Shown: piece by piece, positions 11,573-52,574 of the stretch
How the letters are laid out: each line of letters opens with the position of its first letter
How positions within the stretch are numbered: position 1 is the stretch's first letter
NCBI GenBank assembly: GCA_040384805.1
Contig: JAZKIP010000004.1
Span: 10,255 to 74,254 of the forward strand
Length of the DNA stretch: 64,000 nt
From: Patescibacteria group bacterium
GTDB lineage: Bacteria; Patescibacteriota; Minisyncoccia; Phycocordibacterales; UBA9973
Direction: 5' to 3'
Notes under the pieces: model-generated
The model's input: the letters and a program-made list of their open reading frames with translations, nothing else
What the model was told of the DNA's origin: nothing
The model's database searches: none
Translations under genes and position numbers: made by a program

Positions 11573-12721
11573 TTATCGAGAATCAGCAAAGATATCTACA
11601 TATTTCTTATAAATATAAGATTGACCATATTTCTTATCTTTATCTTTTTGAGAAAGGATACCCATTTCAATAAAGCGATCAATAACTATTTGTGCACCAA
11701 CACGGGTGAATCCGGTCCATTTCTGAATAAGAGCAATATTTACAATTGGCTGTCCATAAAGTTTTGGTAAAACAACCATAGAGCTCTCAGAAGCACGCTT
11801 GCCGAGCATCTGTACTTTTTCCATATCTTTCTCACGAAGAGTAGTAACTTTACTCACAATATCAATTGCTTCATTTGCAATCTCAATTACACCATCAAGA
11901 AAGAAATCTACCCATTCAGAGACTTCGCCCTTGTGATAGCCAAAAAGTCTCTCATAATAAAGCTCTTTGTGCTTCTTGAAGAATGAAGACAGGAATAGGA
12001 CGGGCTTTTCAAGATAACCCTCTTTCCAAAGATAGAATGTAATGAGCATTCGCCCTGTTCTTCCATTACCATCAAGGAATGGGTGAATTATCTCAAACTG
12101 TGCATGAATGAGTGCTGATTTTATGACTGTGAGTATAGCATCATTAGAATGCATGAACTTTTCAAGGTCAGTAAGTGCTTCATTCATTTCAGCTACTGGA
12201 GGAGGAACAAAGCGAGCATTATCGGGGCGCGTACCACCGATCCAGTTTTGACTTTTACGAAATTCTCCTGGATCAGAAAAGTGGGTAGCACGGGCTTCAT
12301 GCATAAGTTTCTTGTGCAATTCTCGTATGAAGCGGAGAGTCAAAGGAAAGTCATCATCAGTCACACGCTTCATTCCATAGTTTAGAGCGTTGATGTAATG
12401 TAAGATGTCGTCAACATCTTCAGGAATATTTGTATTGATTTGCACTTCTGCTTCAATGGCGTCTACCATTGTCGCCATCGTTCCTTCTATCTGACTTGAT
12501 GATGCGGCATCTTTTCTTAAGTACATCAGTAAGAAAAAATCAGCATCGGGAAGAAGTTTAGTAATACCATCAAGTTTGCCGAGAAGTCGTGTTGCTTGAT
12601 CACTTTTCTTGAGAATTATAGGGTCAAACTCAAAATAACCTTTTGGTGGGAAAGGTCCTGGAATGAAGGCTTTAAACCCCTCAGGCTGAGCTTTAATTGT
12701 TCCAATTTCAAAGGATTTCAT
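11573..12721 (-). CDS. fic: Fic family protein (AMPylator-type toxin domain; class II with intramolecular inhibitory helix)
   Basis: Canonical Fic motif HPFLDGNGRTGR (around 12040-12080). Inhibitory (S/T)xxxE(G/N) motif SSQIEGT N-terminal to it. C-terminal winged-helix-like region. Confidence 0.85.
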   Translation of the reverse strand: MKSFEIGTIKAQPEGFKAFIPGPFPPKGYFEFDPIILKKSDQATRLLGKLDGITKLLPDADFFLLMYLRKDAASSSQIEGTMATMVDAIEAEVQINTNIPEDVDDILHYINALNYGMKRVTDDDFPLTLRFIRELHKKLMHEARATHFSDPGEFRKSQNWIGGTRPDNARFVPPPVAEMNEALTDLEKFMHSNDAILTVIKSALIHAQFEIIHPFLDGNGRTGRMLITFYLWKEGYLEKPVLFLSSFFKKHKELYYERLFGYHKGEVSEWVDFFLDGVIEIANEAIDIVSKVTTLREKDMEKVQMLGKRASESSMVVLPKLYGQPIVNIALIQKWTGFTRVGAQIVIDRFIEMGILSQKDKDKKYGQSYIYKKYVDIFADSR

Positions 12722-22288: not shown

Positions 22289-22363
22289 GGTCCCGTCGTT
22301 CAATGGATAGGACGTAACTTTGCGGAAGTTATGATGCAGGTTCGATTCCTGCCGGGATCACCA
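22289..22363 (+). tRNA. tRNA-Arg (anticodon read as GCG; encoded CCA)
   Basis: GGTCCCGTCGTTCAATGGATAGGACGTAACTTTGCGGAAGTTATGATGCAGGTTCGATTCCTGCCGGGATCACCA. Acceptor GGTCCCG/CGGGATC (one G-U), D-stem GTTC/GGAC, anticodon stem TAACT/AGTTA with loop TTGCGGA, T-arm GCAGG-TTCGATT-CCTGC. Confidence 0.75.
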
Positions 22364-23973
22364 AAAACAAAACTTCGGTCTTCAAGAACCCTGAAGCCAT
22401 TTCTGCATTGATAAGCTAGGGTGTCGTGGGAAAACCTGATTTCGGAAAATACCTTCGTGATGATTTGCTGCTTTTCGCTAGGGTTTGCCAATTTATAGTA
22501 TAGATACGCATCCCTGAGGATTTCGGAAAGTTTTACAAGGTCTTTTACGACTTGGTTCAATGGGATATCCGCGCTGTCTTCTTTATTCGCTATTTCCTCT
22601 AACTTTTTTTCTAAGCGCATCTCTTCATTTATGTAATCCTGAGGAGTAAAAACACCGCTCTTCAGTAGGGTAAGTTTATTCATCTGCAGGTACTGGATTT
22701 CTTCCTGAGTTTTCCTTTTCTCCCTCTCTATTTCGACAGCTTCTTTCTTTCGGCGTTCTTCTAAGATAGATAATACTGTTTTAATCCGAGAATCAATCTC
22801 CCGGAGTTCGTCTTCGCTGTAAAAAAGCTGGGATATTTTTTCACCGATAGTATCCTCGATAAAAGCAGAGTTAATACTTCTAAGCGTGTTAGAACAACCA
22901 AAACAACAACGGCTCCCGTAATAATGAATTCCTTTCTTTTCATAGGGCGTATAAACTCTGTTGCAATGGAAACACCTTACGATACCTCGATAGGGGAAGT
23001 AAATCTTATCAGTGTAGTGTACGCTGACGTTCTTCTTCGCAAGTATGCTTTCAGCTCTATAAAAGAGTACTGGGTCAATAATCGGTGCATGGCTTTTGCT
23101 CGGAACCCATTTCCTGCCATTACCTCTTATCTCACCAATATAAAAGCGATTCCTCAGAATCCAGTGGATATGGTTGAAGGTGATAGGCCTGCATACTTTA
23201 TCGATAACTAGTTCTTTGTTTGAAAGCATTTCTTTCAAGCTCCTCTTTCGTCTTACGGCAGGCATCGTGAGACCCTGTTCGTTCGCCCACTTTGCAAGGT
23301 CTATCAGGCTCCACGTTCCCTCAACATACTTTTCAAAGATTTGCTTTATAATTGGAGCTCGTTCCGGGTCGAAGGGTTTATAATAAGGATTTCCCTGATT
23401 AAGGTAGCCGATAGGTGCACGATAGGTACAAATACCCTCATCTCTTAATTTTGTCAGTGCGAAGCGTATCTTTTCGCTTGTAACCCGTGAATGGTGTTCG
23501 GCGAATACTCCGTCAATATCCCGATAAAGCTCGCCTCCAGAATTATTCTCGTAACGAACTAAGACAAAATGCACATCGCTCCCTTGCTTCATAAGTTTAT
23601 TAAGAATACTGTTATCGCTTTTATTACGGCTTATTCTGTCCCAGCAGAGGGCTATAACGCCTCTAATAGCGCTATCATTCATTAGCTGTGTAAGCTTATG
23701 GAACTTGGGCCGCTCTGTATAGTATTGAACCGAACCGTCATCGCGAATCGTTAAGTCCTTATCTTCCTTGAAACCTGTATGCTTTTCTATGATAAATCCC
23801 GATTCGCAAAATCCTTCGATATTCATTGAGGCGATAGGGAGGTTTGCCGATTTAACGTACTTGAGAATCTCCTTCTTTTGGTACTCAATGGAATTCTGCT
23901 GACTATCGGAATCATCCGTACTACGACGAATGTAAACGAGGTACTTATCTTTGTATGGTAACTCTTGACGCAT
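22300..23973 (-). CDS. Large serine recombinase (integrase) with its 3' end reading into the tRNA-Arg gene
   Basis: Resolvase-type catalytic domain (YLVYIRRSTDDSDSQ ... IALCWDRISRN). Recombinase domain. Zinc ribbon CFHCNRVYTPYEKKGIHYYGSRCCFGC. C-terminal coiled-coil. The last 21 codons overlap the tRNA. Confidence 0.85.
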   Translation of the reverse strand: MRQELPYKDKYLVYIRRSTDDSDSQQNSIEYQKKEILKYVKSANLPIASMNIEGFCESGFIIEKHTGFKEDKDLTIRDDGSVQYYTERPKFHKLTQLMNDSAIRGVIALCWDRISRNKSDNSILNKLMKQGSDVHFVLVRYENNSGGELYRDIDGVFAEHHSRVTSEKIRFALTKLRDEGICTYRAPIGYLNQGNPYYKPFDPERAPIIKQIFEKYVEGTWSLIDLAKWANEQGLTMPAVRRKRSLKEMLSNKELVIDKVCRPITFNHIHWILRNRFYIGEIRGNGRKWVPSKSHAPIIDPVLFYRAESILAKKNVSVHYTDKIYFPYRGIVRCFHCNRVYTPYEKKGIHYYGSRCCFGCSNTLRSINSAFIEDTIGEKISQLFYSEDELREIDSRIKTVLSILEERRKKEAVEIEREKRKTQEEIQYLQMNKLTLLKSGVFTPQDYINEEMRLEKKLEEIANKEDSADIPLNQVVKDLVKLSEILRDAYLYYKLANPSEKQQIITKVFSEIRFSHDTLAYQCRNGFRVLEDRSFVFGDPGRNRTCIITSAKLRPIH

Positions 23974-23988
23974 ATAAATTATTATGTC

Positions 23989-25699: not shown

Positions 25700-27940
25700 T
25701 TAAGAAGACTTCTCTAATTTATTTTTTAGATCCATCCACTCTTTATGGAGTGTTTCTAAGTGTTTTGGAACTTTTTTATCGATAATTGTTTGCAATTCAT
25801 TCCTAAGATTGGCAAAAATTTCCTTTGATGTACCTTCAGTATATCGTTGATTGCCAACTAATTTACCCACTTCAGAATTTGTATTGTTAGAAGAGATATA
25901 AAATCGATTTTTCTTTTGCAACTCAGAAATTGTCTTATCTATTTCATCAATTTTTGCTTGCAGTTTTTTTATGCCTTCTAATTTTTCTAAGTCAGATTCC
26001 CATTTAGTCAAAGCACTACCCTTTCCCAAAAAACCGGCCTTTGGTTTTAGTGCATTATGTCTTGAAATTGAATAATCAATATAAGCAGGAGAAATATTTA
26101 GGTTGGAAAAATTTGATTCAAGGAGTTTTAGTTTATCTTTTTTTGTTTGTCTTTCGATGTTTTGTGTTTTTATTTCTGCATCTACCGAAGGTACTTCAAT
26201 CATATTCCCATTTAAAATGATCTTTTCTTGAGGTAGCGTTGCTTCCAAGCTCGTAAGTTCAACAAGTAAATCTTCTGCATTCTTTCTATCTTGTTCAATT
26301 TTAGCAATAGCAGATCCTATTCTGTAGACATTATCCGCAGCAAAATTTTCTTTTGTTTTTTCTTCCTGCAACTCTTTTTGTTTTAAGGCTACATCTACTG
26401 CTAGTTGTAGTTTTTCAGAAACTTTCTGTTTCATGTAATTAATTTTTTTAATTTTCTCATCAAGATACGCGATCGCATCTGAATACGATCTTGATTTATT
26501 AGCCTCTATGAGTTCATTGATCGGTTTTTTTGCTGAATCACTATAATTTCCATTTATAGCTTTACTGACAGAGAGTTTAAATGCAGTATTAGAATAATCA
26601 GGTCTGCCTATATCAAGACGAAGTTCTGATATTTGATCCTTGCCATTAGTTCCTCTAAGAAGACTTTTTATACCATCTTCTGTATTCAAAGCACGTATTA
26701 CTTCAATAAATTTCTCTAGTTTCACTTTCTGTTTTTTAATTGCTTCTTTTACAGAAACAAAGTTAAACGTCGGAGGAAAAGAAGTTACATCTTTCAGGCT
26801 TTCTTGTAGCGTTTTCACGTATTCAGGTGACATAAGACTTATATAATCCTCATAATTACCACCATAACCTGTAGCATATTCAGGATTGAAGTCTATACCT
26901 TTTGCTTTAAACATTTCAGATTTCTCTTTCATAAGATCTCTGAAATGTTGCTGTAAATTCTCGAATTCCTTCATTGCGTCTCGAGCTTCTGAACCTTCTT
27001 TAGGACTCCCAGACTGCAACTGTTCTTTTAAATCTTGGCTATACTCACGACCATCATCAAATCTTCGGAATTGTTTATTTGTCTGATTCTCGTATGCTTT
27101 TTTCAAAGCTAACTGTGCAACTTCTTTGCCATACATTGCTTCGACTTCATTGAAACTTTGGGGAAATAGTTGAATTTCAGAGGTCCGATTAAAAGTCACA
27201 GTATCATTATTTAACACAATCGCATACTCATGATAGTTGTCGTTCTTGATTGTTAGTTTGCATTCTTTATTCTGTGCGTTACCTTCAAGTGATTGTTTTG
27301 GTATTTCATTCTCGAATGTTTCGGCAATACCATCAACTACTTCAATGTTGCCCTCTGGTGTTTTTAACTTTTCTGTATTAAGCTCAATTTCTATCTCTTG
27401 CAGTTTTTTATTTAACGCTTCTTCTGCTAATTCATATGTAAAATCATTATCATTTGGCATGACTTCAAGATCAATCAGCATTTTATGCAGCTTTGTCTCC
27501 ATTTCTTCAAATTCTGATTCATCTTCTAAGGCTTTTTTATATAGAATAACATCTTGATCCTCTTTGAATTCAGGATGATCTATAAAAGAATCAACACTTT
27601 TAATACCTTTTGTTTCTTCAAGTACATCTTTAAATTCAGCAAAACTTTCCGTCACAGGTTTTTTTCCTTTCTCGACAGAATCTTTCTTACCAGCTTTATA
27701 AGATTTCATTGTTAACTTATCAGAAGTATTATCTGCGAGTGTATTCCTTATTAAAAGCAATCTATTTTTTAGTACATTTATTTCTTTAATTTTAGCTCTA
27801 GTTGGCTCAAGCACAGCATCTTCCTTTGCTTTCTGCTCTGTAATCTTATTTTCGATAGCCTCGGTTTTTAAGTTAGTTAGTTTATCTTTTAATGCCATAT
27901 AGTTTATTATATTTGTTTTATATAGTAATGTACATAACAT
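25700..27940 (-). CDS. Large coiled-coil Lys/Glu-rich hypothetical protein (746 aa; probable start MALKDKL at about 27898), element cargo
   Basis: Long heptad-like K/E/L-rich stretches. No Walker or catalytic motif recognised. Confidence 0.45.
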   Translation of the reverse strand: MLCTLLYKTNIINYMALKDKLTNLKTEAIENKITEQKAKEDAVLEPTRAKIKEINVLKNRLLLIRNTLADNTSDKLTMKSYKAGKKDSVEKGKKPVTESFAEFKDVLEETKGIKSVDSFIDHPEFKEDQDVILYKKALEDESEFEEMETKLHKMLIDLEVMPNDNDFTYELAEEALNKKLQEIEIELNTEKLKTPEGNIEVVDGIAETFENEIPKQSLEGNAQNKECKLTIKNDNYHEYAIVLNNDTVTFNRTSEIQLFPQSFNEVEAMYGKEVAQLALKKAYENQTNKQFRRFDDGREYSQDLKEQLQSGSPKEGSEARDAMKEFENLQQHFRDLMKEKSEMFKAKGIDFNPEYATGYGGNYEDYISLMSPEYVKTLQESLKDVTSFPPTFNFVSVKEAIKKQKVKLEKFIEVIRALNTEDGIKSLLRGTNGKDQISELRLDIGRPDYSNTAFKLSVSKAINGNYSDSAKKPINELIEANKSRSYSDAIAYLDEKIKKINYMKQKVSEKLQLAVDVALKQKELQEEKTKENFAADNVYRIGSAIAKIEQDRKNAEDLLVELTSLEATLPQEKIILNGNMIEVPSVDAEIKTQNIERQTKKDKLKLLESNFSNLNISPAYIDYSISRHNALKPKAGFLGKGSALTKWESDLEKLEGIKKLQAKIDEIDKTISELQKKNRFYISSNNTNSEVGKLVGNQRYTEGTSKEIFANLRNELQTIIDKKVPKHLETLHKEWMDLKNKLEKSS

Positions 27941-31196: not shown

Positions 31197-31204
31197 ACGC
31201 TTTC

Positions 31205-35095: not shown

Positions 35096-35613
35096 TGATG
35101 CCATCTTTACTGCAAAAAAATAAGGGATTTACTCTCATCGAAATTCTTGTCGCGATCGGCGTTTTGACGCTTATTCTTGGCGCCACTATCTCCTTGATTA
35201 TGATGCTCGTTCAAAGCAGATCTCGAAGCCAGATCGTCGGCGAAGTTGACGGGCAGGGAACAAACATCATGCAGACTCTTGCTCAAACCATCCGCAATGC
35301 CTCTTCGATTGCAGCGCCTGCAACAGGAGCCTCCGCTTCGGCCGTATCGCTCGTCATGTCCGACAGCGCGAAATCCCCGACCTCTTTTTCTCTTTCAGGC
35401 GGCATCATATCGATGACAGAAGGGAGTACGGCCGCCGTGCCGCTCTCATCGTCCCAAGTGACGGTTTCGAATCTCTCATTTCTAAATCTCTCTCGTCCAA
35501 GCACTCCCGGAGTCATCCGTATTCAATTTACCGTCTCCTATTCGACAGGCGCGTATGCGTACTCGAAGAATTTTATCGGCGCTGCAAGCCTGCGGCAGCT
35601 TGTGTTAAAATGA
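35092..35613 (+). CDS. Type IV pilin
   Basis: NKGFTLIEILVAIGVLTLILG, a textbook prepilin leader with Glu+5. Confidence 0.8.
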   Translation: MMMPSLLQKNKGFTLIEILVAIGVLTLILGATISLIMMLVQSRSRSQIVGEVDGQGTNIMQTLAQTIRNASSIAAPATGASASAVSLVMSDSAKSPTSFSLSGGIISMTEGSTAAVPLSSSQVTVSNLSFLNLSRPSTPGVIRIQFTVSYSTGAYAYSKNFIGAASLRQLVLK

Positions 35614-35619
35614 ATCAAG

Positions 35620-36036
35620 ATGAATCAGAACTCTATACAGATGAAGAGAGGGGGATATGTCGCGATCATCGCGGTTGTTATCACTGCGATCGTGGGACTT
35701 GCCATTGTGAATGCCATGAGCGCACTGGCGTTCAGCTCTCATGCGACGGCTCTCGCTCGTGAGCGATCGGAACAGGCAAAAGGATTGGCCAATGCCTGCG
35801 CAGAACTTGCCTTGCAGAAAATGATCGGCTCGGCCGCATTCGTCGGTACGGCCAACGTGCCGCTTGGAGCCGGGACATGCACATATACCGTCACTCAGCT
35901 AAGCTCTCTCTCAAGCGTCATTCAGGCAACCGGAACGGTTGCGACGGTTGTAAGAAAAGTCAAAGTCGCAATTACCGTGTCGAATATCATGCCGGTTCTT
36001 AAAATATCCTCATGGCAGGAAATATCCGATTTTTAA
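35620..36036 (+). CDS. Minor pilin-like hypothetical protein
   Basis: Hydrophobic N-terminus MKRGGYVAIIAVVITAIVGLAIVNA, but no canonical GFTLIE. Confidence 0.4.
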   Translation: MNQNSIQMKRGGYVAIIAVVITAIVGLAIVNAMSALAFSSHATALARERSEQAKGLANACAELALQKMIGSAAFVGTANVPLGAGTCTYTVTQLSSLSSVIQATGTVATVVRKVKVAITVSNIMPVLKISSWQEISDF

Positions 36037-36039
36037 TAT

Positions 36040-37947
36040 ATGAGATCATTTAAAACATCTTCCATACTCATTCTGACAGCTATCGTTTTAGTTGTTGGTA
36101 TCTTTATGACGCTTTCGATCGGGGAAAAGACCGACACGGAGCAGCGCGAAGCGCTCCAGTTGCGGGCGGAGATCGCAGCCAAAGCGATCAGAAGCGAGGA
36201 TATCTTGAACTTATCGGGAACGACTGCCGATATCGATTCTCCTGTCTATGTGAATCTCAAAAATATCATGCAGGCTCTCAAGGGTGTCCGTCCCGATATC
36301 CGGTTCGTTTATCTGATGGGATACTCTGGTGGGGAAAAGCTTTTCTTTTATATTGATTCGGAGGACCCCCGCTCTCCAGACTATTCGACGCCCGGAGATA
36401 TATATGAAGACACTACGCCTCAAGAGCTCGACGGTTTTAAAAACGGACAGGCTTTCGTGGAAGGTCCTCTTCAGGACGAGTGGGGAACATGGGTGAGCGC
36501 CTTCGCTCCTGTTAAAGACGAGAATGGCACGACGATCGCTCTTTTGGGCATGGATGTTAACGCATCCTTGTGGAATTATGTCGTTTTTGAAAAAGAAATT
36601 CCTCCCTTGCTTATAACCGCATTCTTGATCATTCTTCTTTTGTCGTATCTTTACTTTGCTCAACGTACCGATATATATATCCAGAGGATTAAAAAAAGCG
36701 AAGCGATCGCCGATATTGAGCGCAATCGGCTGCGCAGCTTGTATGAGATAGGGAATAACCAGCATGAAAGCATCGCCGAGCAGTTTCGTTCCGCATTGAA
36801 AGTCGGCAACACGACCCTTGAAACACGCATGGCGCTGATCAATCGCATTATCGGCGATGAGTTTACGGTTCTCTATGTGGTTGCGCCGTCAGATAGCATT
36901 GATGAGGGAGACCGCTTCTCGCTTAAGGAGACATACTGCGACATTACTGTCCGCAAGGACGATGTCGTTGCGATCAGCGCCATGAGCATTTCCGAATACA
37001 AGGCTCACGCTTGCTATTCGAAATTCGGACTTGAATCATATATCGGAGTGCCGATCAAGGTCAACGGGGAACTCTTCGGTACGCTCACATTCTCTGCGCC
37101 CGATCCGCACCGTCCCGAATTTTCCGAAAGCGATAAGGACTTCGTCCGCTTGATGGGCGCGTGGGTGTCCGCGACGCTCGAACGGGCCGAAGTCGACAAG
37201 ATGAAATCCGAATTCGTATCCCTTGCGTCGCATCAGCTCAATACGCCGCTCTCGACCATCAACTGGTTCGTCGATCTCCTGACAACGGATGAAAAAGAGG
37301 CATTGTCTCCCGAACAGAAAAAATACGTCACCGGCATAGGGGAGGCGAGTACTCGTATGGTCGATCTTGTGGATGCTCTTTTGAACGTATCGCGGATCGA
37401 GATGGGAACCTTCGCCGTTGCTCCCGTTCCGGTCCGACTCGACGAGGTTGCCGAGAGCTTGCTTTCAGAGCTTGATCATCAGATCAAGGAGAAAAAGCTC
37501 TTTGTAACGAAGGATTTTGATCCGGGAATCCCTCCGATTCCGGCCGATCCGAGCCTTATTCGGATCGTATTCCAGAACCTTCTGACAAATGCCATCAAGT
37601 ACAATATCGACGGAGGAAAGCTTGATATTCGAATCATTCAAAAACCGGAGTATAAAGACATGGTCTATTGCGAGATTGCCGATACGGGCCTCGGCGTTCC
37701 GAAGAAAGACCAATCACGGATTTTCCAGAAGCTTTTCCGGGCGGATAACGCCAAGATGAAGATCACCGACGGCAATGGCTTGGGCCTCTATATCGTCAAA
37801 TCAATTATAGAGTCGGCCGGCGGCAAGATCTGGTTTGCCTCCGAGGAAAACAAGGGAACAATCTTCTCATTTGTCTTGCCGCTTTCCGGAATGAAAGCCA
37901 GATCGGGTTCTAAGGCCCTCGTATCGGGAGAAAAGCACGAGATGTAG
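36040..37947 (+). CDS. Sensor histidine kinase (two TM segments, extracytoplasmic sensor domain, HisKA + HATPase_c)
   Basis: H-box FVSLASHQLNTPLSTI. N-box LLTNAIKYN. G-boxes DTGLGV and GNGLGLYIVKSIIESAGGKIW. Confidence 0.85.
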   Translation: MRSFKTSSILILTAIVLVVGIFMTLSIGEKTDTEQREALQLRAEIAAKAIRSEDILNLSGTTADIDSPVYVNLKNIMQALKGVRPDIRFVYLMGYSGGEKLFFYIDSEDPRSPDYSTPGDIYEDTTPQELDGFKNGQAFVEGPLQDEWGTWVSAFAPVKDENGTTIALLGMDVNASLWNYVVFEKEIPPLLITAFLIILLLSYLYFAQRTDIYIQRIKKSEAIADIERNRLRSLYEIGNNQHESIAEQFRSALKVGNTTLETRMALINRIIGDEFTVLYVVAPSDSIDEGDRFSLKETYCDITVRKDDVVAISAMSISEYKAHACYSKFGLESYIGVPIKVNGELFGTLTFSAPDPHRPEFSESDKDFVRLMGAWVSATLERAEVDKMKSEFVSLASHQLNTPLSTINWFVDLLTTDEKEALSPEQKKYVTGIGEASTRMVDLVDALLNVSRIEMGTFAVAPVPVRLDEVAESLLSELDHQIKEKKLFVTKDFDPGIPPIPADPSLIRIVFQNLLTNAIKYNIDGGKLDIRIIQKPEYKDMVYCEIADTGLGVPKKDQSRIFQKLFRADNAKMKITDGNGLGLYIVKSIIESAGGKIWFASEENKGTIFSFVLPLSGMKARSGSKALVSGEKHEM

Positions 37948-38582: not shown

Positions 38583-40265
38583 CTATGAGAGAAACACATC
38601 CTCTTCTTTTGTGGGTAAAAATTGTGATTCCTCATTTTTTTGCACTTTATAACGTATTGCATATTCAACAAGAGCCTGTTTTGTAAGCATATATGATGCA
38701 AGGGCATGCGGATCCTTCAGGTCCTCGTTCTGTATCTGGATTCCCTGGGTTTTCTTCAATTCCTCTAGAAATCTCTTTTTTGCAGAGTAGATCAGACTTT
38801 TGTTAGAATCGGGGGAATTTTCTTCTTTCATTTTTTTCTCCAGTTCTTTTAAGGTTTCCGACAGCTGTGAGAAAAAATCCGGATTTGACAGCATCCAGAA
38901 TTTCCTATGGCTTTCCATGTAGTTTATGAAATAGTCTTCAAATGTTTCATTGTCTGCATTTATCATTTCTTCGGTTATCGGCAGCAGCGCGTAGCTGTCA
39001 CTGTTGATATCCTCATTCTTATACAGGCCCAATTCGACGAATGCTTCTGCAAGCGCGCCGTATAGAGTGTCTCCATCTTTGAAAGGTTGATAATAGAAGC
39101 TTTTTTGCCGCAAGAGATTGTTATCTACCAGTGTTTCAGGAGCTGCCATTCCGGCTACGATAATTTTGGATTCTTCCAATGCCCTCTTGTAAAGATCTGC
39201 TTCTTGCGGAGTCGTATTGGCGATAGCTCTTTGCAAATTCCCCAGTTCGCTTTCCAGTATCTCCGCGTCCGTCTGCGAATTTTTTTCTTGGTTGGAACGC
39301 GCAGGTTTTTTCTGAATAGGATCTTCCATGGTTGTCGACTCTGGAGTTTCCTCCCCTGTCATTGATTCTATGATTTGTTCTCCAAGCTCCCTGTGTGATT
39401 TCGCAAAGTCTCCGTTATTCAGGGTAATGTGCTTTGCCTTCTTGAGAGTTTCAACCGCGCTTTCATATTTGTCATTGCCTTCTTTTTCTTTCGCGAACGA
39501 TTCCAGTCTTTCAAGGATTGATCCCCGATTTTCATCATCAAGAAGAACAACAATAACATTGCTTTTCTTCTCTATGGCCTTTGCTATCTCCTGCCCGCCG
39601 ACCACGTCGAATTTATCAAGTACGTCATGTGTCAAAAGAACAACCGTCTGCCCTTTTTCAGGAATGCCGGCGTTGATCGACTCTTTCCATCGGTTTCCCA
39701 ATGGCAGGCCTTTGGCAAGTTCAGCACCTCCTGAAGACGAGAATTCTTCCTCGTCGATAGTTATATTCGTTTCCTGATTATCAAACCATACGAGCATGCC
39801 TATGGAGCGAAGAGCAAGATGCAATTTTCGAGCCATCTCTTCGTTACGGCGCGAATATGAGACCATTACTTCGCGAGACGGGAGTTTTGCAAGCAAGGGA
39901 TGCATGTCCGCTATTCCTTCCGCTATCGCTTCCACTTCCTCAAGACTATCTTTTCTCTTCTTATATGTAATCGTCTTTTCCGTTCCTTTCTGGCTGGCTT
40001 CAGTGTCGAGTGTCTTTTGCAGGGATTCGACTCCTGCTTTTAGGTTCTGAAGCGACGCCCTCCTTTCAGACACATTAAGAGGCTCCATACTAACCTCTGA
40101 CTGCTCGGCCTTATTATAAACAGAACCACCGTCCTTATTATTTAAATTGAATTTTCTTCTTTCTATCATATATGTAATTATATCACGGTGATTTTTAAAA
40201 TATAGTCCGCCTGGATCTTGGGAATTGAAACCCCTAAGAGTGAAAAAAGATTTCAAACTTGCCAT
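38583..40265 (-). CDS. 560-aa hypothetical protein with a central TIR-like domain
   Basis: REVMVSYSRRNEEMARKLHLALRSIGMLVWFDNQ ... GNRWKESINAGIPEKGQTVVLLTHDVLD follows the TIR layout (betaA xxSYSxxD, alphaA A..L..L, betaB VWxD, W...I). TIR-like part at about 39515-39863. Flanks are Lys/Glu-rich with no motif. Confidence 0.5.
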   Translation of the reverse strand: MASLKSFFTLRGFNSQDPGGLYFKNHRDIITYMIERRKFNLNNKDGGSVYNKAEQSEVSMEPLNVSERRASLQNLKAGVESLQKTLDTEASQKGTEKTITYKKRKDSLEEVEAIAEGIADMHPLLAKLPSREVMVSYSRRNEEMARKLHLALRSIGMLVWFDNQETNITIDEEEFSSSGGAELAKGLPLGNRWKESINAGIPEKGQTVVLLTHDVLDKFDVVGGQEIAKAIEKKSNVIVVLLDDENRGSILERLESFAKEKEGNDKYESAVETLKKAKHITLNNGDFAKSHRELGEQIIESMTGEETPESTTMEDPIQKKPARSNQEKNSQTDAEILESELGNLQRAIANTTPQEADLYKRALEESKIIVAGMAAPETLVDNNLLRQKSFYYQPFKDGDTLYGALAEAFVELGLYKNEDINSDSYALLPITEEMINADNETFEDYFINYMESHRKFWMLSNPDFFSQLSETLKELEKKMKEENSPDSNKSLIYSAKKRFLEELKKTQGIQIQNEDLKDPHALASYMLTKQALVEYAIRYKVQKNEESQFLPTKEEDVFLS

Positions 40266-44457: not shown

Positions 44458-45087
44458 ATGGAAACATTAACCAGAGGACTTGACAATCTGTGGACTGCAG
44501 ACGGTCTGACAGATCCCGAAAAGAACCTTTTGCAGAAATTCATTGCCGAAGTGGCCCGCAAAGCAAAAGGCTTCATATCAGAACTCTTCGGCTTTGACAA
44601 AACTCGTACGGCGAAAAGCCGGCCCGAAGAATTTATCATCAGCAAGGAATCGGTTGAAGAGGATTTCTTCCAGCCGATCCGTGAACGGGAAGCAAGCGCC
44701 GGAAATATCGTTCCGTGGCTTGATGAAGATATCTGGAAATTCTGGAAAGGAAAGAAAGTTCCTGGCTTCCTCGTGGACATTATATTTTCGATCTATCGCT
44801 TTTTAAAGAACCTTACTCACAGACAGATTCTGGAGGAAGGAGAAAAGCAGGAAATTAAGAAAATATATTCCTATGCCCAGGCCAAGGAAATAATCCGCAC
44901 GGCAATATGGGCCGGCGACGTTGACCAGAAGAACACAGGCGTATTCGCTTATTTTAAGGTAGATGCAGGTGGACCTTTGTACCGCTTCAGCGCCTTCCGT
45001 CGCGGCGGCGGCCAGCTCCGTGTATTCGTGGATGGGGTGGGTCTGGACGGCGTGTGGTATGTCGGCCTTGGTGTGTGCTTCGGCTGA
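44458..45087 (+). CDS. DGR target protein (209 aa) with C-terminal variable region
   Basis: The C-terminal 35 codons (YRFSAFRRGGGQLRVFVDGVGLDGVWYVGLGVCFG) are the VR counterpart of the TR at 45408-45510. Confidence 0.8.
   Translation: METLTRGLDNLWTADGLTDPEKNLLQKFIAEVARKAKGFISELFGFDKTRTAKSRPEEFIISKESVEEDFFQPIREREASAGNIVPWLDEDIWKFWKGKKVPGFLVDIIFSIYRFLKNLTHRQILEEGEKQEIKKIYSYAQAKEIIRTAIWAGDVDQKNTGVFAYFKVDAGGPLYRFSAFRRGGGQLRVFVDGVGLDGVWYVGLGVCFG
44981..45083 (+). repeat. DGR variable repeat (VR)
   Basis: 103 bp aligning with the TR. About 20 mismatches, all but one at positions where the TR has adenine. Confidence 0.85.
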
Positions 45088-45407: not shown

Positions 45408-45510
45408 ACCGCTTCAACGCCTTCCGTAACGACGACGGCCAGCTCAATGTCAACGTGAATAAGGTGGATCTGGACAACGAGTGGAATGTCGGCAATGGTG
45501 TGTGCTTCGG
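45408..45510 (+). repeat. DGR template repeat (TR), non-coding, rich in AAC/AAT triplets
   Basis: ACCGCTTCAACGCCTTCCGTAACGACGACGGCCAGCTCAATGTCAACGTGAATAAGGTGGATCTGGACAACGAGTGGAATGTCGGCAATGGTGTGTGCTTCGG. Same orientation as VR and RT. Confidence 0.85.
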
Positions 45511-45976: not shown

Positions 45977-46962
45977 ATGGAAATATTTAAAAAGCAATAC
46001 CTCAAGATTGTTACCGTCGAAAATCTTATTGAGGCATGGAACGAGTTTCTTCGCGGAAAGGGAAATCGCAGCGATGTCGCGGCTTTTCAGGCCCGTTTGT
46101 CGGACAATATCTTTGATTTGTGGCGCGAGCTTGCCGACAGGACATATATTCACAGCGGATACGAGGCGTTCAATGTCTCCGATCCGAAGCCGCGGATTAT
46201 TCACAAAGCTCTTGTTCGCGATCGTCTCCTTCATCATCTCCTCTATCGGGAACTCTATGCCTATTTCGACCGGAAATTTATCTTTGATTCGTATTCGTGC
46301 CGCATGAGCAAGGGAACCCATCGGGCAATAGACCGTTTCCGAGAATATGCCGGGAAGGTATCGAAGAATAATACGAAAACATGCTGGATCTTGAAGTGCG
46401 ATATCAGAAAATTCTTCGCAAGCATCGATCATGCTATCTTGAAGCGCATTCTTGCCGAGCATATCGCCGACCCCGATTTCCTCTCTCTTTTCGGGGTTGT
46501 GATCGACAGCTTCGAAACGAAAGGAGTGCTCGGTGTCGGGCTTCCTCTCGGCAATCTGACGAGTCAGCTTCTCGTCAATGTCTATATGAATGAATTCGAC
46601 CAGTTCGTCAAAAGAAAACTGAAAGTGAAATATATTGTATCCGCTATGCGGATGACTTTGTCTTTTTAAGCGACGATAAGACGTATCTCGAATCGCTCAT
46701 ACCGGAAATACGGGCATTCTTGGAAGAAGAACTGAAGCTCTCCATCCATGAGAAAAAGCTTTTCCTTCGGACTCTTGCCTCGGGTATGGATTTCCTCGGC
46801 TGGGTGCACTTTCCTCATCATCGGAAACTGAGAACTGCGACAAAGAAAAGAATGCTGCGCAGGCTGGCGCAGTCTCCCGAGCCTCAGGCGGTCAATTCCT
46901 ATCGGGGGATGCTTCGTCACGGAAATACATACAAGATCCAAAAGCAAGCGGGATTAACATAG
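45977..46962 (+). CDS. DGR reverse transcriptase, reading frame broken by a 1-nt frameshift near 46638-46643
   Basis: N-terminus LIEAWNEFLRGKGNRSDVAAFQARL ... KPRIIHKALVRDRLLHH and motifs GLPLGNLTSQLLVNVYMNEFD. The catalytic RYADDFVFL appears only after shifting frame at GTATCC(C)GCTATGCGGATGAC. The downstream frame continues to 46962. Confidence 0.8.
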
Positions 46963-47044: not shown

Positions 47045-50000
47045 ATGGAGCAAATTGAATACTTGCGGAGCAGGATCTTTGCAAAGATACGCTCTTTTTC
47101 ATATCGCTTTGGTTTTATCCTCCTCTTTTTATTATTGTTTCCTTGGGCCAATCTCCATGCGGCAGACCGCAGCGCTCCCTTTCTTTTTGGAGAAACTCTT
47201 GATCCCGGAATGGAATCGGAGCCTTGCGGGCCGATGGATGAGAACTGCTTTCCGGGCCATCTTGGAACTCAAGACGAGAATAATCATCTGATCAATAATC
47301 CGACAGGTCTTAATTTCGTAGGTCCGGGAGTAACTGCTACGCAAGATAGCAACGGGTGGATCATCGTGACAGTTCCCGGAGGGCTGACATCTCTCAACGG
47401 GATCTCGGTCGGCAGCCAGACGATAAGCGCAGGGTCGTCGGGAACGGATTTCAACATCTCATCATCCGGATCGGGCCATATATTCAATATCCCGAGTGCC
47501 TCGTCACTCGGCCGCGGTCTTTTAACCCCGGCTGACTGGGCTATTTTCAATGGCAAACAGGATTCTCTCGGATTCACTCCTCTTGATCCGGCGAACAATC
47601 TTGCCGATCTTGCATCAACAGCTCTCGCAAGAACGAACCTCGGCCTCGGAAGTGCTGCGACAGTAAGCCTGACAACGCTCCTTCAATCATCAAATAATCT
47701 CTCTGATATCGCATCGACCGGCACGGCCCGCGCCAATCTGGGTCTTGGCACTATGGCGACGGAGAATTCAAGCGCGTTTCTTCGCTCGGCTAATAATCTC
47801 TCCGACCTCGGATCAGCAACAACTGCGCGTACGAATTTAGGATTAGGCACGGCAGCTCTGGCGAATCTCTCATCTCTCCTTCAAGCGTCGAATAACTTAT
47901 CAGACCTTTCCAATATCATAATCACCCGCGCAAATCTTGGATTGGGAACTGCCGCGACGGCGAACTCATCGGCATTTCTTCAAGGATCCAATAATCTTTC
48001 CGATCTCGGTTCATCATCTACCGCGCGCACGAATCTCGGTCTCGGAACTCTTGCCACCCTTTCGACTATCAACAATTCGCACTGGTCGGGAACCCCTCTG
48101 TCGGTTTCAAACGGAGGAACGGGAGCCGGAACTGCAAATGACGCTCTTAATGCATTTCTTCCGGCTCAAGGTCCGCACGCGGGAGACTACCTGACAACAG
48201 ATGGCGCGACTGCGTCATGGGGCGATCTTCCGTCGCCCGCGTGGGGATCGATCGCCGGAACCTTATCGGATCAGAGCGACATGCAGGCGGTCTTTGACGC
48301 GAAGGAGGATGTAATCATTCCCGGCTTAACGAGCCACTATTTCCGAGGCGATAAAACATGGCAGACTCTTAACAAAGCGTCTGTAGGCCTTGGTAATACT
48401 GAAAATACAGCTCTCTCGACATGGGCGGGAAGCGCGAACATAACGGCGCTCGGGACTATCGCATCAGGTACGTGGAACGCGAGCCCGATCGCTGATCTCT
48501 ATGTTTCGAGCGCTTCGTCATGGAATGCCAAGCAAAATGCGCTCGGATTCACCCCTCTTGATGCGGCGAGCAATCTCTCTGATCTTTCCGATGCAAGTGA
48601 TGCCCGTGCAAATCTTGGCCTTGGTACTATCGTGACCGAGGATTCAGACGCATTTCTTCAGGCATCAAACGATCTTTCCGATCTTGTCCACGTCCCAACC
48701 GCTCGGTCTAACTTGGGATTAGGGACGGCTGCTCTTGAAAGCGCGGATTCTTTTCTTCTTGCGGCAGGCAACCTCTCGGATCTTTCATCCCTATCGGACG
48801 CAAGGAACAATCTCGGTTTGGGATTGCTTGCGATTTTAAGTACGGTGAATGATAGCAACTGGTCGGGAACTCCTCTTGCGATCGCAAACGGCGGAACAGG
48901 AGCGGGAACCGCAGAGGATGCACGTAACGCCATCCTCCCGCTGCAAAGTTCCCATGCGGGGGAGTATCTGACGACGGATGGAACCCACGCATCATGGGAT
49001 GAGCCGCCCGCGCCCGCGTGGGGATCGATTGCCGGGACTTTGTCCGATCAAGCGGATCTTCAGGCCTCTCTTGATGAAAAAGAGGATGTGATTGACGCAG
49101 GATCGGCAAGCCAGTATTTCCGCGGGGACAAGACATGGCAGACTCTCAACAAGGCTGCCGTTGGTTTGGGGAATGTGGAAAATACAGCTCTCTCAACATG
49201 GACGGGAAGTACGAATATAACGACGCTCGGTACGGTTACCGGAGGCACATGGCACGGAAGCGCGATCGATGATGCGTATATTGGAAGCGCTGCCGCATGG
49301 AATGCCAAACAAGCTTCTCTCGGATTCACGCCGCTTAATCCTGCGAATAATTTGTCTGAAATTGTTTCAGCACCGACGGCGCGTACGAATTTAGGATTGG
49401 GTACGGCGGCAACTTTAAATACAAATGCTTTTTTGCAACCCGTCAATAATCTCTCTGAACTCTCTTCGCCATCTACTGCCCGCACAAATCTCGGTCTCGG
49501 TAGTGCAGCTACAGTTAATACAAATTCACTTTTCCAAGTTTCTAATAATTTATCTGAAATTGCGGTACCTTCAACTGCTCGTACCAACCTCGGCCTTGGC
49601 ACTGCCGCAACGGCAAATTTGACTTCTCTTCTTCTAGCATCAAACAATCTTTCTGACCTCGGATCAGCAACAACCGCGCGCACGAATCTAGGCCTCGGAT
49701 CTCTCGCCACTCTTTCATCGGTCAATAATTCGAACTGGTCGGGGACAGGGCTCTCGATTGCAAACGGGGGAACAGGGGTAACAACTGCAAATGACGCTCT
49801 TAATGCATTTCTACCTTCGCAGGGAATAAATTCCGGAAAATATCTGACAACCAACGGTACCAATGCATCATGGGCCGATATAGTTCCGGGCGGAGTTACC
49901 TCTGTCGGGCTTTCTCTTCCCTCCGTGTTCTCCGTCTCGGGTTCTCCGGTAACATCAAGCGGAGTATTATCGGCGACGCTTGCAACTCAAAGCGCGAATA

Positions 50001-51217
50001 CTGCATTCTTGGGTCCTGCGACAGGAGGCGCAGCAGCGCCCGGATTCCGCTCTCTTGTGATCGCGGATCTCCCGACAGCAATACCGAATGCCAATCTTGC
50101 CAATTCATCGCTTTCTCTTGCGATCGGCACCTCGGGAACCGATGCCGCATGGTCGGCAGGGTCGGTATCTCTCGGCGGAACGGCGACGCTTAATATCCCG
50201 GATGCCTCGGCAACGAACAGGGGACTTGTCACCACAGGAGTCCAGACGGTCGCGGGAGTCAAGACGTTCTCATCGGCGCCGAAGCTCTCATCGCTCACCG
50301 CAGGATCGGTCCTCTTCGTCGGATCGGACAAATCTATATCCGAGAATAATACGAAGCTCTTTTGGGATAATTCCACCAATCGCTTGGGGATCGGAGTGAA
50401 CAATCCCTCGGGAGTTCTTCATACGAGCGGGGCGGTTTATTTCGCCGGTCTTGCGACTGATAATTCGATCGGTCTTGCGGGAGCCTTATGCCTTGACGCT
50501 TCAAACCAGCTCAAGAAGCTCACGGGCCTCGGGTCATGCATCGTTTCGTCGCGCAAGTACAAGAAGGACATCGAGACCTTGTCATACCCTGATCGCTCGA
50601 ATCTCGACACCGTCATGGCTCTTCATCCGGTTTCCTACACGAGTATCTTCGACGAGAGCAAACGCATCGGATTCGTCGCCGAGGAGGTTCTTTCTATTGA
50701 TCCGCGCCTCATCGCGTTTGAGCCGGGAAGCACGACCGATCCGCGCGGCGTCCGCTATGAGGAGACAACGGCCCTTCTTGCGGCGGCACTCCAGGAACTT
50801 AATCTCGAGGTCAAAACGCTTTCCGAGCCGTGGACGGCTCAGGAAAGCGGAAGCTTCGCGGGGAAATTTACAACGCGCCTAAGCGAATGGCTGTCCGATG
50901 CGGGGAACGGCATACGGACAATTGCGGCCGATACGTTTCGCGCTCGCGAAGCGGTCGTCGAGCGCATCTGCGTCGGCACCGAGGAGAACAAGACATGCAT
51001 CACGAAAGACGATCTTGATCGCCTCCTTGCCAATCAGGCAGCTCCGCAGATGACACCCTTTTCAAATCCATCACCCGAATCGGACGAAGGTACCATGCCC
51101 GAAGAGCCATCACAAAATGCGCCTCCGGAAGAGGATATTCTTCCCGGGGAGAGCGAAGATCTTACCAATAACGCCCTTCCTGAAGCGGCCGATGCTATTC
51201 CCGTATCTGAAAGCTAG
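47045..51217 (+). CDS. 1390-aa secreted fibre protein built from phage-tail-fibre-like repeats with a C-terminal peptidase-S74-type intramolecular chaperone domain
   Basis: Signal peptide FGFILLFLLLFPWANLHA. More than 20 copies of NNLSDL(x)S(x)TARTNLGLGTAA and three copies of IANGGTGAGTA(x)DA(x)NA ... W(x)GSIAGTLSDQ modules (internal duplication of about 800 bp at 48.1-48.9 kb versus 48.9-49.7 kb). C-terminal SSRKYKKDIETL ... LHPVSYTS ... GFVAEEVLSIDPRLIAF at about 50540-50830 matches the tail-spike/endosialidase chaperone domain. Confidence 0.7.
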   Translation: MEQIEYLRSRIFAKIRSFSYRFGFILLFLLLFPWANLHAADRSAPFLFGETLDPGMESEPCGPMDENCFPGHLGTQDENNHLINNPTGLNFVGPGVTATQDSNGWIIVTVPGGLTSLNGISVGSQTISAGSSGTDFNISSSGSGHIFNIPSASSLGRGLLTPADWAIFNGKQDSLGFTPLDPANNLADLASTALARTNLGLGSAATVSLTTLLQSSNNLSDIASTGTARANLGLGTMATENSSAFLRSANNLSDLGSATTARTNLGLGTAALANLSSLLQASNNLSDLSNIIITRANLGLGTAATANSSAFLQGSNNLSDLGSSSTARTNLGLGTLATLSTINNSHWSGTPLSVSNGGTGAGTANDALNAFLPAQGPHAGDYLTTDGATASWGDLPSPAWGSIAGTLSDQSDMQAVFDAKEDVIIPGLTSHYFRGDKTWQTLNKASVGLGNTENTALSTWAGSANITALGTIASGTWNASPIADLYVSSASSWNAKQNALGFTPLDAASNLSDLSDASDARANLGLGTIVTEDSDAFLQASNDLSDLVHVPTARSNLGLGTAALESADSFLLAAGNLSDLSSLSDARNNLGLGLLAILSTVNDSNWSGTPLAIANGGTGAGTAEDARNAILPLQSSHAGEYLTTDGTHASWDEPPAPAWGSIAGTLSDQADLQASLDEKEDVIDAGSASQYFRGDKTWQTLNKAAVGLGNVENTALSTWTGSTNITTLGTVTGGTWHGSAIDDAYIGSAAAWNAKQASLGFTPLNPANNLSEIVSAPTARTNLGLGTAATLNTNAFLQPVNNLSELSSPSTARTNLGLGSAATVNTNSLFQVSNNLSEIAVPSTARTNLGLGTAATANLTSLLLASNNLSDLGSATTARTNLGLGSLATLSSVNNSNWSGTGLSIANGGTGVTTANDALNAFLPSQGINSGKYLTTNGTNASWADIVPGGVTSVGLSLPSVFSVSGSPVTSSGVLSATLATQSANTAFLGPATGGAAAPGFRSLVIADLPTAIPNANLANSSLSLAIGTSGTDAAWSAGSVSLGGTATLNIPDASATNRGLVTTGVQTVAGVKTFSSAPKLSSLTAGSVLFVGSDKSISENNTKLFWDNSTNRLGIGVNNPSGVLHTSGAVYFAGLATDNSIGLAGALCLDASNQLKKLTGLGSCIVSSRKYKKDIETLSYPDRSNLDTVMALHPVSYTSIFDESKRIGFVAEEVLSIDPRLIAFEPGSTTDPRGVRYEETTALLAAALQELNLEVKTLSEPWTAQESGSFAGKFTTRLSEWLSDAGNGIRTIAADTFRAREAVVERICVGTEENKTCITKDDLDRLLANQAAPQMTPFSNPSPESDEGTMPEEPSQNAPPEEDILPGESEDLTNNALPEAADAIPVSES

Positions 51218-51221
51218 AACT

Positions 51222-52574
51222 ATGACGATCCGATTTACCATCATTCTTTTCTGTTGCCTATTCCTTTCCCCGTTCGGGGCGAGGGCTTCGACCGTCACCG
51301 GAACGATCGACTCCTCTTTTGCGATGAGCCTCATCTGCCACGATGTATCATGTACCGATTACGGCATGGTGAATTTCAAGCCGTCTCTGACGGGAGAAAC
51401 GACGGGGCTTTCAGCAATCATAATCACCGAGAGCGGCATCACGGGAAACGCGTGGGGAAACGAGATCGGATGGATCAATTTCTCGCCCGCGGGCGGGGGA
51501 GTAACTGTCGATTCTTCGACGGGGGAGTTGAGCGGGCTTGCTTGGTCAAGCGTCGGTTCATGGATCAATTTCTCTCCGACGGACGTATCGGGCGGAATGG
51601 AGGTCGGCGTCTCGATCATGCCTGACGGATCATTTTCCGGATGGGCCTGGGTTTCCGGGATGCAGGGAGGGTGGATGAGATTCGACTGCGCAAATTCCAC
51701 TATGTGCGTAAAGACCGATTGGCGTCCGGTTGCATATCGCGAAGCATGCCAGAACGGGATCGATGACGACAATGACGGATCAGTCGATACGGGAGATTCA
51801 GGCTGCGCCTCGGCCGACGATACAAGCGAAACTCAATCATCTTCGGGAACGGGAAACACGACGGGAGGCTCGGGAGGATCATCGGGAGGAGGAAGCGGGC
51901 CACGGCGGCCGATCCCTCCTCTGCCTGCCTATCCTCTTGTTCCCGTATCTCTTTCACCTGCTCTGCCTCTTGCAGAGGTTCCGGCTCGGCCGCCAATCGC
52001 CCCGGCGCGATCCTGCGCGCTTCCCCTTGCCGCCTACATCCGGCTTGGACGCACCAATGTTCCGGCCGAAGTCAGAAAATTGCAGGATTTCCTGCGGACG
52101 AATCAGGGAGAAACAGGAATACGGACAACCGGTGTATACACATGGAAAGAGCATGACGCAGTCGTCCGCTTCCAGGAAAAATACGCCCGCGATATTCTTG
52201 TTCCGTGGGGCTTGTCGAAGGGAACGGGCTATGTGTACATAACGACGACGCGGAAAATAAACGAGCTTCTGTGCAGGAAAGATGCCGTCGTTTTCACGAA
52301 GGATCTGTCGGTCGGCGCGCGGCATGACGAGGTCAGGCTTCTTCAGGAATTTCTCAATAGGAACGGTTTCCCTGTCTCTCCGGCGGGGATCGGATCTTCC
52401 GGCATGGAGATAAGCCTCTTTACCTCAAAAACAAGGAGCGCCCTTGCGCGATTTCAGGAAAAATACCGACCTTATGTATACGCCCAGTCCCACATCTATC
52501 CGCGTCCGGGAGTTCTTGATGCGGTGACGCGCCATTTTATTAATACGAATCTCGAAACAAAGGGATTCAACTAG
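51222..52574 (+). CDS. Secreted protein with two C-terminal peptidoglycan-binding (PG_binding_1) domains and a Pro-rich linker
   Basis: Signal peptide MTIRFTIILFCCLFLSPFGARA. Repeats VRKLQDFLRTNQGETGIRTTGVYTWKEHDAVVRFQEKY and VRLLQEFLNRNGFPVSPAGIGSSGMEISLFTSKTRSALARFQEKY. The ORF track starts at 51117. Confidence 0.65.
   Translation: MTIRFTIILFCCLFLSPFGARASTVTGTIDSSFAMSLICHDVSCTDYGMVNFKPSLTGETTGLSAIIITESGITGNAWGNEIGWINFSPAGGGVTVDSSTGELSGLAWSSVGSWINFSPTDVSGGMEVGVSIMPDGSFSGWAWVSGMQGGWMRFDCANSTMCVKTDWRPVAYREACQNGIDDDNDGSVDTGDSGCASADDTSETQSSSGTGNTTGGSGGSSGGGSGPRRPIPPLPAYPLVPVSLSPALPLAEVPARPPIAPARSCALPLAAYIRLGRTNVPAEVRKLQDFLRTNQGETGIRTTGVYTWKEHDAVVRFQEKYARDILVPWGLSKGTGYVYITTTRKINELLCRKDAVVFTKDLSVGARHDEVRLLQEFLNRNGFPVSPAGIGSSGMEISLFTSKTRSALARFQEKYRPYVYAQSHIYPRPGVLDAVTRHFINTNLETKGFN

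Follow-up and report, generated by a model that had tools for sequence, protein, structure and literature searches.

Does a gene assembled from bacteriophage tail-fibre modules betray a prophage, or can it belong to the cell whose chromosome carries it? This question is raised by a stretch of 64,000 nucleotides (nt) from a Patescibacteria group bacterium (Minisyncoccia; GenBank assembly GCA_040384805.1, contig JAZKIP010000004.1, positions 10,255 to 74,254 of the forward strand), hereafter the window, to which all coordinates refer. The longest open reading frame (ORF) of its region (47045..51217, + strand) encodes a fibre-like protein of 1390 amino acids (aa), and an identical NCBI entry, on a 177.3-kb contig, already bears the generic annotation 'MAG: tail fiber domain-containing protein [Patescibacteria group bacterium]', which places the window in a genome assembled from a metagenome. 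In a first-pass annotation, this ORF had been described as a 1390-aa protein with a signal peptide and as a cellular secreted protein built of phage tail-fibre modules. Both statements are borne out: the ORF is real, it begins with a Sec-type leader that is shared by its family, and no phage structural gene was found in the window.

The interpretation that we consider moderately probable is that this gene is chromosomal and encodes a Sec-exported, trimeric cell-surface fibre of the Patescibacterium, tail-fibre-like but mounted on the cell. It draws on the domains that were identified, on a catalytic dyad that is intact, and on the fold predicted for the Peptidase_S74 (S74) core, as well as on chromosomal context, conservation within a family, and synteny.

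Anatomy of the fibre protein

The most informative part of the protein is its C-terminal region, which the first-pass annotation had likened to the S74 chaperone that normally acts on tail spikes. In Pfam, the family PF13884 (Peptidase_S74) matches aa 1168-1221 with 27.1 bits against a cut-off of 22, and together with AlphaFold2 and Foldseek this delimits an intramolecular chaperone core at aa 1168-1260 (50546..50824, +), with Ser1168 and Lys1173 in the motif SSRKYK. The S-x4-K dyad is intact, S1168-S-R-K-Y-K1173 being aligned to SDRRIK of the phage S16 fibre chaperone (6f45). In an AlphaFold2 model of aa 1010-1340, computed as a monomer from an alignment of 43 sequences, the predicted local distance difference test (pLDDT) values were 86-96 for the S74 core and 86-88 for a C-terminal beta-hairpin and helix. 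When the core was submitted to Foldseek, the top ten PDB chains were those of the MyRF ICA domain (7dc3), the endosialidase intramolecular chaperone (3gw6), and the T5 L-shaped fibre (4uw8), with 7dc3 as the best match (E 7e-4, probability 1.0); against viral models, 189 S74 models were recovered at E<=1e-3. The profile and fold comparisons therefore agree with the proposed S74 chaperone, with PF13884 above its cut-off and the ICA fold recovered. The protein does not end there, as had been supposed, and continues with two further segments: a Patescibacteria-type extension at aa 1261-1331 (50825..51037, +), which contains WLSDAGNGI, a Cys1309-Cys1318 beta-hairpin, and a helix, and an acidic, proline-rich tail of low complexity at aa 1332-1390 (51038..51214, +), with 14 Asp plus Glu, 11 Pro, and no Lys or Arg. 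Immediately upstream of the chaperone, a Cys1149-x15-Cys1165 loop ends two residues before the cleavage serine, Ser1168, at which trimerisation-dependent autoproteolysis would take place.

At the other end, aa 1-39 (47045..47161, +) form a Sec-type signal peptide. The N-terminus reads MEQIEYLRSRIFAKIRSFSYRFGFILLFLLLFPWANLHA followed by ADRS, with a basic n-region, a hydrophobic core (FGFILLFLLLFPWA), and a c-region in which cleavage is predicted between LHA and AD. This call is a heuristic judgement that combines sequence features with a family alignment: the leader can be aligned with those of ten family members, in which the Ala at position -1 is invariant. The segment that follows (47162..47269, +) was recognized by alignment as the N-terminal motif of the family (GETLDP..C61..C68) with the first cysteine pair, and reads GETLDPGMESEPC61GPMDENC68 in the window fibre. 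It is succeeded by an N-terminal domain (47270..47584, +) that includes NIPSASSLGRGLL and is homologous to the N-terminus of the patescibacterial protein P0089 (1e-15). The whole protein contains exactly six cysteines, in the pairs 61/68, 1149/1165, and 1309/1318, all at positions conserved in the family; such paired, conserved cysteines are as expected of an extracytoplasmic protein. A scan for promoters and terminators around the gene gave results no better than those obtained with shuffled sequence.

Between these ends lies a shaft in which a 33-aa unit (..NNLSDLxxxxTARTNLGLGTAAT..) occurs 12 times, grouped into blocks of five, three, and four, each followed by one of three 'NGGTG...YLTTDG' connectors; the dozens of repeats initially reported thus come down to 12 plus the three connectors. 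Block 1 (five repeats, aa 181-345, 47585..48079, +) is followed by connector module 1 (NGGTG ... YLTTDG ... YFRGDKTWQ; aa 346-505, 48080..48559, +), block 2 (three repeats, aa 506-604, 48560..48856, +) by connector module 2 (aa 605-764, 48857..49336, +), and block 3 (four repeats, aa 765-896, 49337..49732, +) by the third NGGTG module, which leads into the distal or tip region (aa 897-1167, 49733..50545, +) that ends in the cysteine loop described above. That these repeats are typical of phage tail-fibre shafts is confirmed by matches to PHROG tail-fibre families (phrog_2282, 6e-74; also phrog_22284 and phrog_1980), by the match of aa 181-340 to the 'short tail fiber gp92' in PDB entry 9zd7 (6e-26), and by an identity of approximately 50% over about 130 aa to tail fibres of Pseudomonas and Pectobacterium phages. 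P0090, an S74 protein from the Bdellovibrionaceae, contains these 33-aa NLGLG repeats as well.

A repeat block and its connector together make up a super-repeat of 259 aa (777 nt), present in about three partial copies that share 62-74% nucleotide and 51-66% amino acid identity; super-repeats A (aa 247-506) and B (aa 507-765) are 66% identical at the amino acid level. The tandem duplication of about 800 bp that had been noticed in this gene is thus real, with a period of 777 nt, and its sequence divergence indicates that it is old. The accompanying suggestion that it is a likely site of length variation is not supported: with an identity of 62-74% between copies, and with 30 nt as the longest stretch repeated exactly, the duplication does not stand out as a substrate for frequent recombination, and a role as a recombination hot spot was judged unlikely for the same reason.

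Genomic setting and relatives of the fibre

Shaft repeats combined with an S74 domain are typical of phage fibres, and a serine recombinase accompanied by low-GC islands is present elsewhere in the window (22.3-28 kb). Both observations would suit an ordinary tail-fibre gene of a prophage or phage remnant, whose product is a virion component assembled in the cytoplasm. This explanation is, however, largely refuted by the setting of the gene and by its relatives, and we regard it as very improbable. Pfam and PHROGs scans, which covered about 60 ORFs across the 64-kb window, revealed no capsid, terminase, portal, tail, or baseplate genes; flanking genes of this kind, which the first-pass annotation had named as the mark of a simple prophage fibre, were therefore sought and not found within the window. 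Instead, the scans identified housekeeping genes (PolA, TsaE, SpoU, Fpg, RuvA), a type IV pilus region (response regulator, PilB, pilins, histidine kinase), and other cellular genes that encode a TIR-domain protein, an APH-family kinase, an ABC exporter, PspC/PadR, fasciclin, YibE/F, Fur, ZIP, and endonuclease V. On the upstream side, a distance of more than 19 kb, occupied in part by housekeeping, pilus, and signalling genes, separates the large serine recombinase (22300..23973) and the low-GC islands from the fibre gene.

Composition also argues against a prophage. The G+C content of the fibre gene is 0.53, raised at codon position 2 in keeping with a protein rich in Gly, Ala, Ser, and Thr, and its G+C content at third codon positions (GC3) is 0.51, within the range of the housekeeping genes (0.49-0.60), whereas clearly foreign ORFs have values of 0.23-0.35. 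On the basis of this native GC3, a recent horizontal transfer of the gene was rejected. Domesticated phage hardware had been put forward as one reading of the locus; a recent domestication is not supported, given the match in GC3 to housekeeping genes and the lineage-wide occurrence of the N- and C-terminal modules. Moreover, a Sec-type leader is kept across the family, nothing in 50,697 phage genomes was matched by tblastn with the region comprising S74 and the extension, and relatives occupy chromosomal sites: the nearest architectural relative, P0089, sits between pheT and gyrB, and the fibre gene of locus L059 is found near rpsG and fusA. Because no phage structural gene was found in the window, GC3 is native, and P0089 lies between pheT and gyrB, we conclude from sequence that the fibre gene is not part of a prophage.

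To which proteins, then, is it related? In a first search, three proteins (P0037, P0089, and P0121) resembled the window fibre beyond the repeats, with a pre-cleavage cysteine loop, a tail rich in Pro, Thr, and Glu, and a common post-S74 segment of the form 'W(L/F)ADAGNGI ... ELCVGxxxTC(I/V)TKxxLxxLL'. A search with the C-terminal 266 aa alone returned one match and a four-sequence profile was more productive; with the profile of the C-terminal region (alignment A1), 683 proteins were retrieved, and the few top matches with a named source were from Parcubacteria or Patescibacteria. A taxonomic survey with one genome per GTDB species showed that matches running through the extension belong almost entirely to Patescibacteria (Vogel-, Adler-, and Nomurabacteria, Paceibacterota, Minisyncoccia, and Saccharibacteria), in contrast to matches confined to the S74 core, which come from Bacteroidota, Bdellovibrionota, Gammaproteobacteria, and others. 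This patescibacterial S74 fibre family was delineated in the present analysis and does not correspond to a named family. In the literature searched, coverage of which was incomplete so that absence is not proven, no description of S74 or tail-fibre proteins of Patescibacteria or Saccharibacteria was found.

Full-length members measure 600-2300 aa and start with a Sec-type leader followed by 'PPxSPYxxGxTLDPxCxPGxxNC'. The pre-cleavage cysteine loop (Cys-x12-18-Cys, 1-3 aa before the cleavage Ser) is nearly universal among them, the commonest catalytic motif is 'SSxRFK', and the piece that follows the cleavage site is 200-350 aa long, compared with 130-150 aa in Bdellovibrio-type proteins. All three family features are present in the window fibre: the leader with the N-terminal motif, the pre-cleavage cysteine loop, and the post-S74 extension (WLADAGNGI type, with a CxnC(V/I)T hairpin and a low-complexity tail). 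The NLGLG repeats are absent from most other members, which indicates that the window fibre joins lineage-specific ends to an expanded shaft of phage type. More generally, shaft and tip vary from member to member while both ends are conserved.

Two arrangements encountered in this family deserve mention. In a metagenome-assembled genome (MAG) of the Paceibacterota (L034:621-9557), three tandem paralogous S74 fibre genes encode proteins of 809, 950, and 1215 aa with a shared leader and N-terminal motif, an organization that suggests a paralogue array of the kind known for receptor-binding proteins. At two other loci (L012:8070-8921 and L003:10001-10894, the latter P0140), short ORFs start at the pre-cleavage cysteine loop and contain S74 and the Patescibacteria-type extension; they are found on contigs binned as Alphaproteobacteria, or beside H-NS, integrase, and transposase genes, and could be gene fragments, products of mis-binned contigs, or mobile stand-alone chaperone modules.

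The GWINF neighbour, a possible mechanism and known analogues

If the fibre is retained by the cell that produces it, a candidate for its attachment lies directly downstream. A gene in the same orientation (51222..52574, +) begins 5 nt past the fibre stop codon and encodes a probable partner of 450 aa (MTIRFTIILF...), with a signal peptide, an N-terminal domain that we designate GWINF, a linker rich in Gly, Ser, and Pro, and two PG_binding_1-like domains; its true start is probably 51222, not 51117. The two PG_binding_1 domains that had been announced for this secreted protein differ in their standing: one is well above the Pfam cut-off (36.6 bits against 23), and the second, upstream copy is recognized through internal similarity only (4e-8). 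The GWINF domain, which comprises the N-terminal 215 aa (51222-51866), contains three 'G.AW....GWI.F' units, two conserved cysteine pairs, and the motif 'TDWRP'. It matched no Pfam family, and no fold could be assigned to it, the single-sequence AlphaFold2 model having a pLDDT of 37. In an exhaustive search, 2551 cluster representatives nevertheless matched at E<=1e-3, of which 111 reached E<=1e-30, and in the representatives among the matches listed the domain is N-terminal. Among 88 relatives, its C-terminal partner was most often CarboxypepD_reg with membrane segments (29/88), and in four it was PG_binding_1.

Among the loci of the fibre family, a small sample centred on fibre genes, GWINF genes were found in three from Patescibacteria (L009:821-2653; L059:3-1943 and 4297-6414; L069:8256-9653 and 14014-16242). 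In each of the three, one GWINF copy adjoins an S74 fibre gene in the same orientation, with a gap of 0-160 nt, which is the layout observed in the window. Because GWINF homologues thus flank S74 fibre genes in other Patescibacteria, we read the two genes as a conserved pair in which the GWINF protein would probably serve as an envelope-anchored docking or assembly partner of the fibre.

From these elements we infer that the fibre trimerises, is cleaved, is displayed at the surface, docks to the neighbouring gene's product, and binds a host, in steps that might be linked as follows. The chain would be exported and its leader (aa 1-39) removed. Outside the cytoplasm, the S74 chaperone domains of three chains would associate and nucleate folding of the intertwined shaft, and Ser1168, activated by Lys1173, would then cut the chain, with release of the chaperone, the extension, and the acidic tail (223 aa in total). 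The mature fibre, approximately aa 40-1167, would keep its N-terminal Cys-loop domain proximal to the cell and its variable tip distal, closing in the Cys1149-Cys1165 loop. The co-oriented GWINF/peptidoglycan-binding neighbour would be the likely wall-anchored docking or assembly partner, and adhesion to the surface of a host or partner cell the likely role of the fibre.

The nearest known analogue is the S74 subfamily, e.g., Bd3182, of the mosaic adhesive trimer (MAT) family of Bdellovibrio bacteriovorus, whose members have a signal peptide, a conserved N-domain, and a trimeric fibre, with S74 and an SDxxxK motif in 13 of 21 of them (Caulton et al. 2024, PMC10769870). For MAT fibres, self-cleavage and a location on the predator surface have been demonstrated, and the conserved N-terminal domain is beta-rich and about 130 aa long (PMC10769870). 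MAT proteins and the window fibre have in common a chromosomal gene, a signal peptide, a long phage-fibre-like shaft, a C-terminal S74 domain with Ser...Lys, and membership in multi-paralogue mosaic families, and both come from bacteria that live on other bacteria, a lifestyle that is assumed from the phylum in the case of the window organism. Because of this analogy, host attachment by the fibre is plausible (PMC10769870). The two nevertheless differ in several respects. With P0090 as a proxy for the Bdellovibrionaceae, the N-domains are unrelated by BLASTP (E 17), and the window fibre has the 'GxTLDPxCxPGxxNC' motif instead; its catalytic motif is SSxxxK instead of SDxxxK; a cysteine loop directly precedes its cleavage site; the post-cleavage piece in its family has 200-350 aa, with a conserved extension and low-complexity tail, against approximately 130-150 aa in the Bdellovibrio type; and it belongs to an organism with a monoderm-like envelope and is linked to a GWINF/peptidoglycan-binding partner. 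The window fibre thus appears MAT-like in its working, yet it departs from the MAT superfamily in one defining trait, its N-domain being unrelated by sequence to that of the proxy P0090.

Two further groups of proteins share the chaperone. Phage fibres and tailspikes that carry one (K1F endosialidase 3GW6, T5 pb1 4UW8, S16 gp37 6F45, 9zd7 gp92) have the S74 fold and Ser-Lys dyad in common with the window fibre, and phage tail fibres contain 33-aa shaft repeats homologous to its own. However, phage fibres have no signal peptide, their assembly is cytoplasmic, and their genes stand among structural genes, whereas the window fibre has a leader, a housekeeping context, and a post-S74 extension that was unmatched in the phage genomes searched. 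In eukaryotes, the ICA domain of MYRF (7DC3) is likewise a phage domain that cells have reused for trimerisation and self-cleavage, but MYRF is a membrane-bound transcription factor, with neither a fibre shaft nor export of the domain.

A cellular S74 surface fibre need not serve host recognition. The same anatomy (S74, fold, leader, cysteine loops) would fit a structural filament of the envelope or S-layer type, a decoy for phages, or an adhesin that binds abiotic surfaces or a biofilm matrix; no ligand is identified by sequence, and the tip is a small cysteine loop in which neither Pfam nor AlphaFold2 revealed a recognisable lectin domain. We consider functions of this kind rather unlikely: a shaft and tip that vary between conserved ends are what receptor-binding proteins show under diversifying selection, paralogues are arrayed in tandem in L034, and the known cellular analogue binds prey glycans (PMC10769870). 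Alternatively, the trimer might not be kept on the producer at all and might be released in soluble or vesicle-borne form, perhaps conditioning host cells or resembling the MATs that Bdellovibrio deposits in its prey. The mature part has no covalent or membrane anchor, and some Bdellovibrio MATs are delivered in a vesicle (PMC10769870). Against such a release, which appears quite improbable to us, the conserved N-terminal module argues for docking to a conserved component of the cell, as does the tightly linked, envelope-anchored GWINF neighbour.

Several observations nonetheless weigh against a fibre that is mounted on the cell and directed at a host. The mature protein is without lipobox, LPXTG, or transmembrane segment, so that retention at the surface would hang on an unproven interaction. 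Adjacency of fibre and GWINF genes was seen at only three of about 30 patescibacterial loci, many of which are clipped at contig ends, and given the size of the GWINF family (2551 representatives) some of it could be due to chance. The tip region (aa 897-1167) was poorly modelled, with pLDDT below 60, and position 2 of the catalytic motif is Ser, in contrast to the Asp of the SDxxxK consensus, yet SS is the commonest form in the patescibacterial family. Finally, the episymbiotic lifestyle of the source organism is assumed from its phylum.

The cell-mounted, host-directed fibre leads to a broader and more speculative proposal, to which we attach low credence. Patescibacteria as a phylum might possess a two-part, phage-derived apparatus for host recognition, in which an envelope-anchored GWINF docking protein (held by peptidoglycan or membrane) presents exchangeable S74-matured trimeric fibres, and these, in which the N-terminal plug is conserved but shafts and tips are hypervariable, would determine the host range of the episymbiont alongside type IV pili; the post-S74 extension would then be a lineage-specific adaptation for folding outside the cytoplasm. 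To our knowledge, how ultrasmall episymbiotic Patescibacteria recognize and hold their hosts is largely unexplained beyond type IV pili. A few adhesins have been identified by transposon sequencing (Tn-seq) in one Saccharibacterium (PMC10633639, PMC11665869). A phylum-wide family of phage-like, self-processing fibres whose ends are conserved and whose middles vary offers concrete candidates for determinants of host range. The family also extends to Saccharibacteria MAGs; because cultivated strains of Saccharibacteria are open to genetic manipulation, the idea is directly testable if those strains carry homologues. The locus would also extend the MAT precedent, in that predatory or parasitic cells of a further lineage, very distant and differently enveloped, have apparently reused phage receptor-binding hardware, and it draws attention to the post-S74 extension and the GWINF domain as conserved modules that are still uncharacterised. 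These implications would gain weight if the anchor-fibre pair proved to be a general host-recognition device of Patescibacteria.

Other elements of the window

The fibre had also been described as lying beside a diversity-generating retroelement (DGR) and its target. The DGR is genuine and adjacent, and it looks complete: a 103-nt variable repeat (VR, 44981-45083) differs from its template repeat (TR, 45408-45510) at 20 positions, 19 of which are TR adenines, and the VR is located at the 3' end of the target ORF (44458..45087), which encodes 209 aa without a leader. Near 46610-46640, where the sequence is rich in A, a frameshift interrupts the reverse transcriptase (approximately 45977-46962), whose YADD motif falls in the other frame; this frameshift could be an assembly error, a sign of a pseudogene, or a case of recoding. 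From the end of the reverse-transcriptase gene (46962) to the start of the fibre gene there are 82 nt. A functional link is not supported: patterns derived from the TR, with A replaced by N, match only the VR and the TR and nothing in 47045-52574, and the fibre was rejected as a DGR target, its gene containing no VR.

Further upstream, the window harbors a type IV pilus-related cluster (30822-37947), 9 kb from the fibre gene, with a PilB-type ATPase (T2SSE), at least two prepilin-like ORFs with N_methyl motifs, a GAF histidine kinase, and a response regulator. Type IV pili are a known host-interaction organelle of Saccharibacteria. Beside the serine recombinase, a low-GC island (22300-28000; G+C 0.32-0.33) contains a 746-aa ORF (25700..27940) with a GC3 of 0.23 and no Pfam or PHROG match; the island is probably a foreign element that integrated here and has no relation to the fibre. 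A second low-GC stretch (11573-14839; GC3 0.31-0.35) encodes a Fic/DOC protein (11573..12721) and a 575-aa ORF without family match. A possible gene for defence or an NADase (38583-40265, - strand) lies 7 kb upstream of the fibre gene and specifies 560 aa, of which aa 133-260 form a TIR_2 domain. An ORF of 788 aa with a DUF11 repeat (2883-5249, +) probably encodes a further large surface protein.

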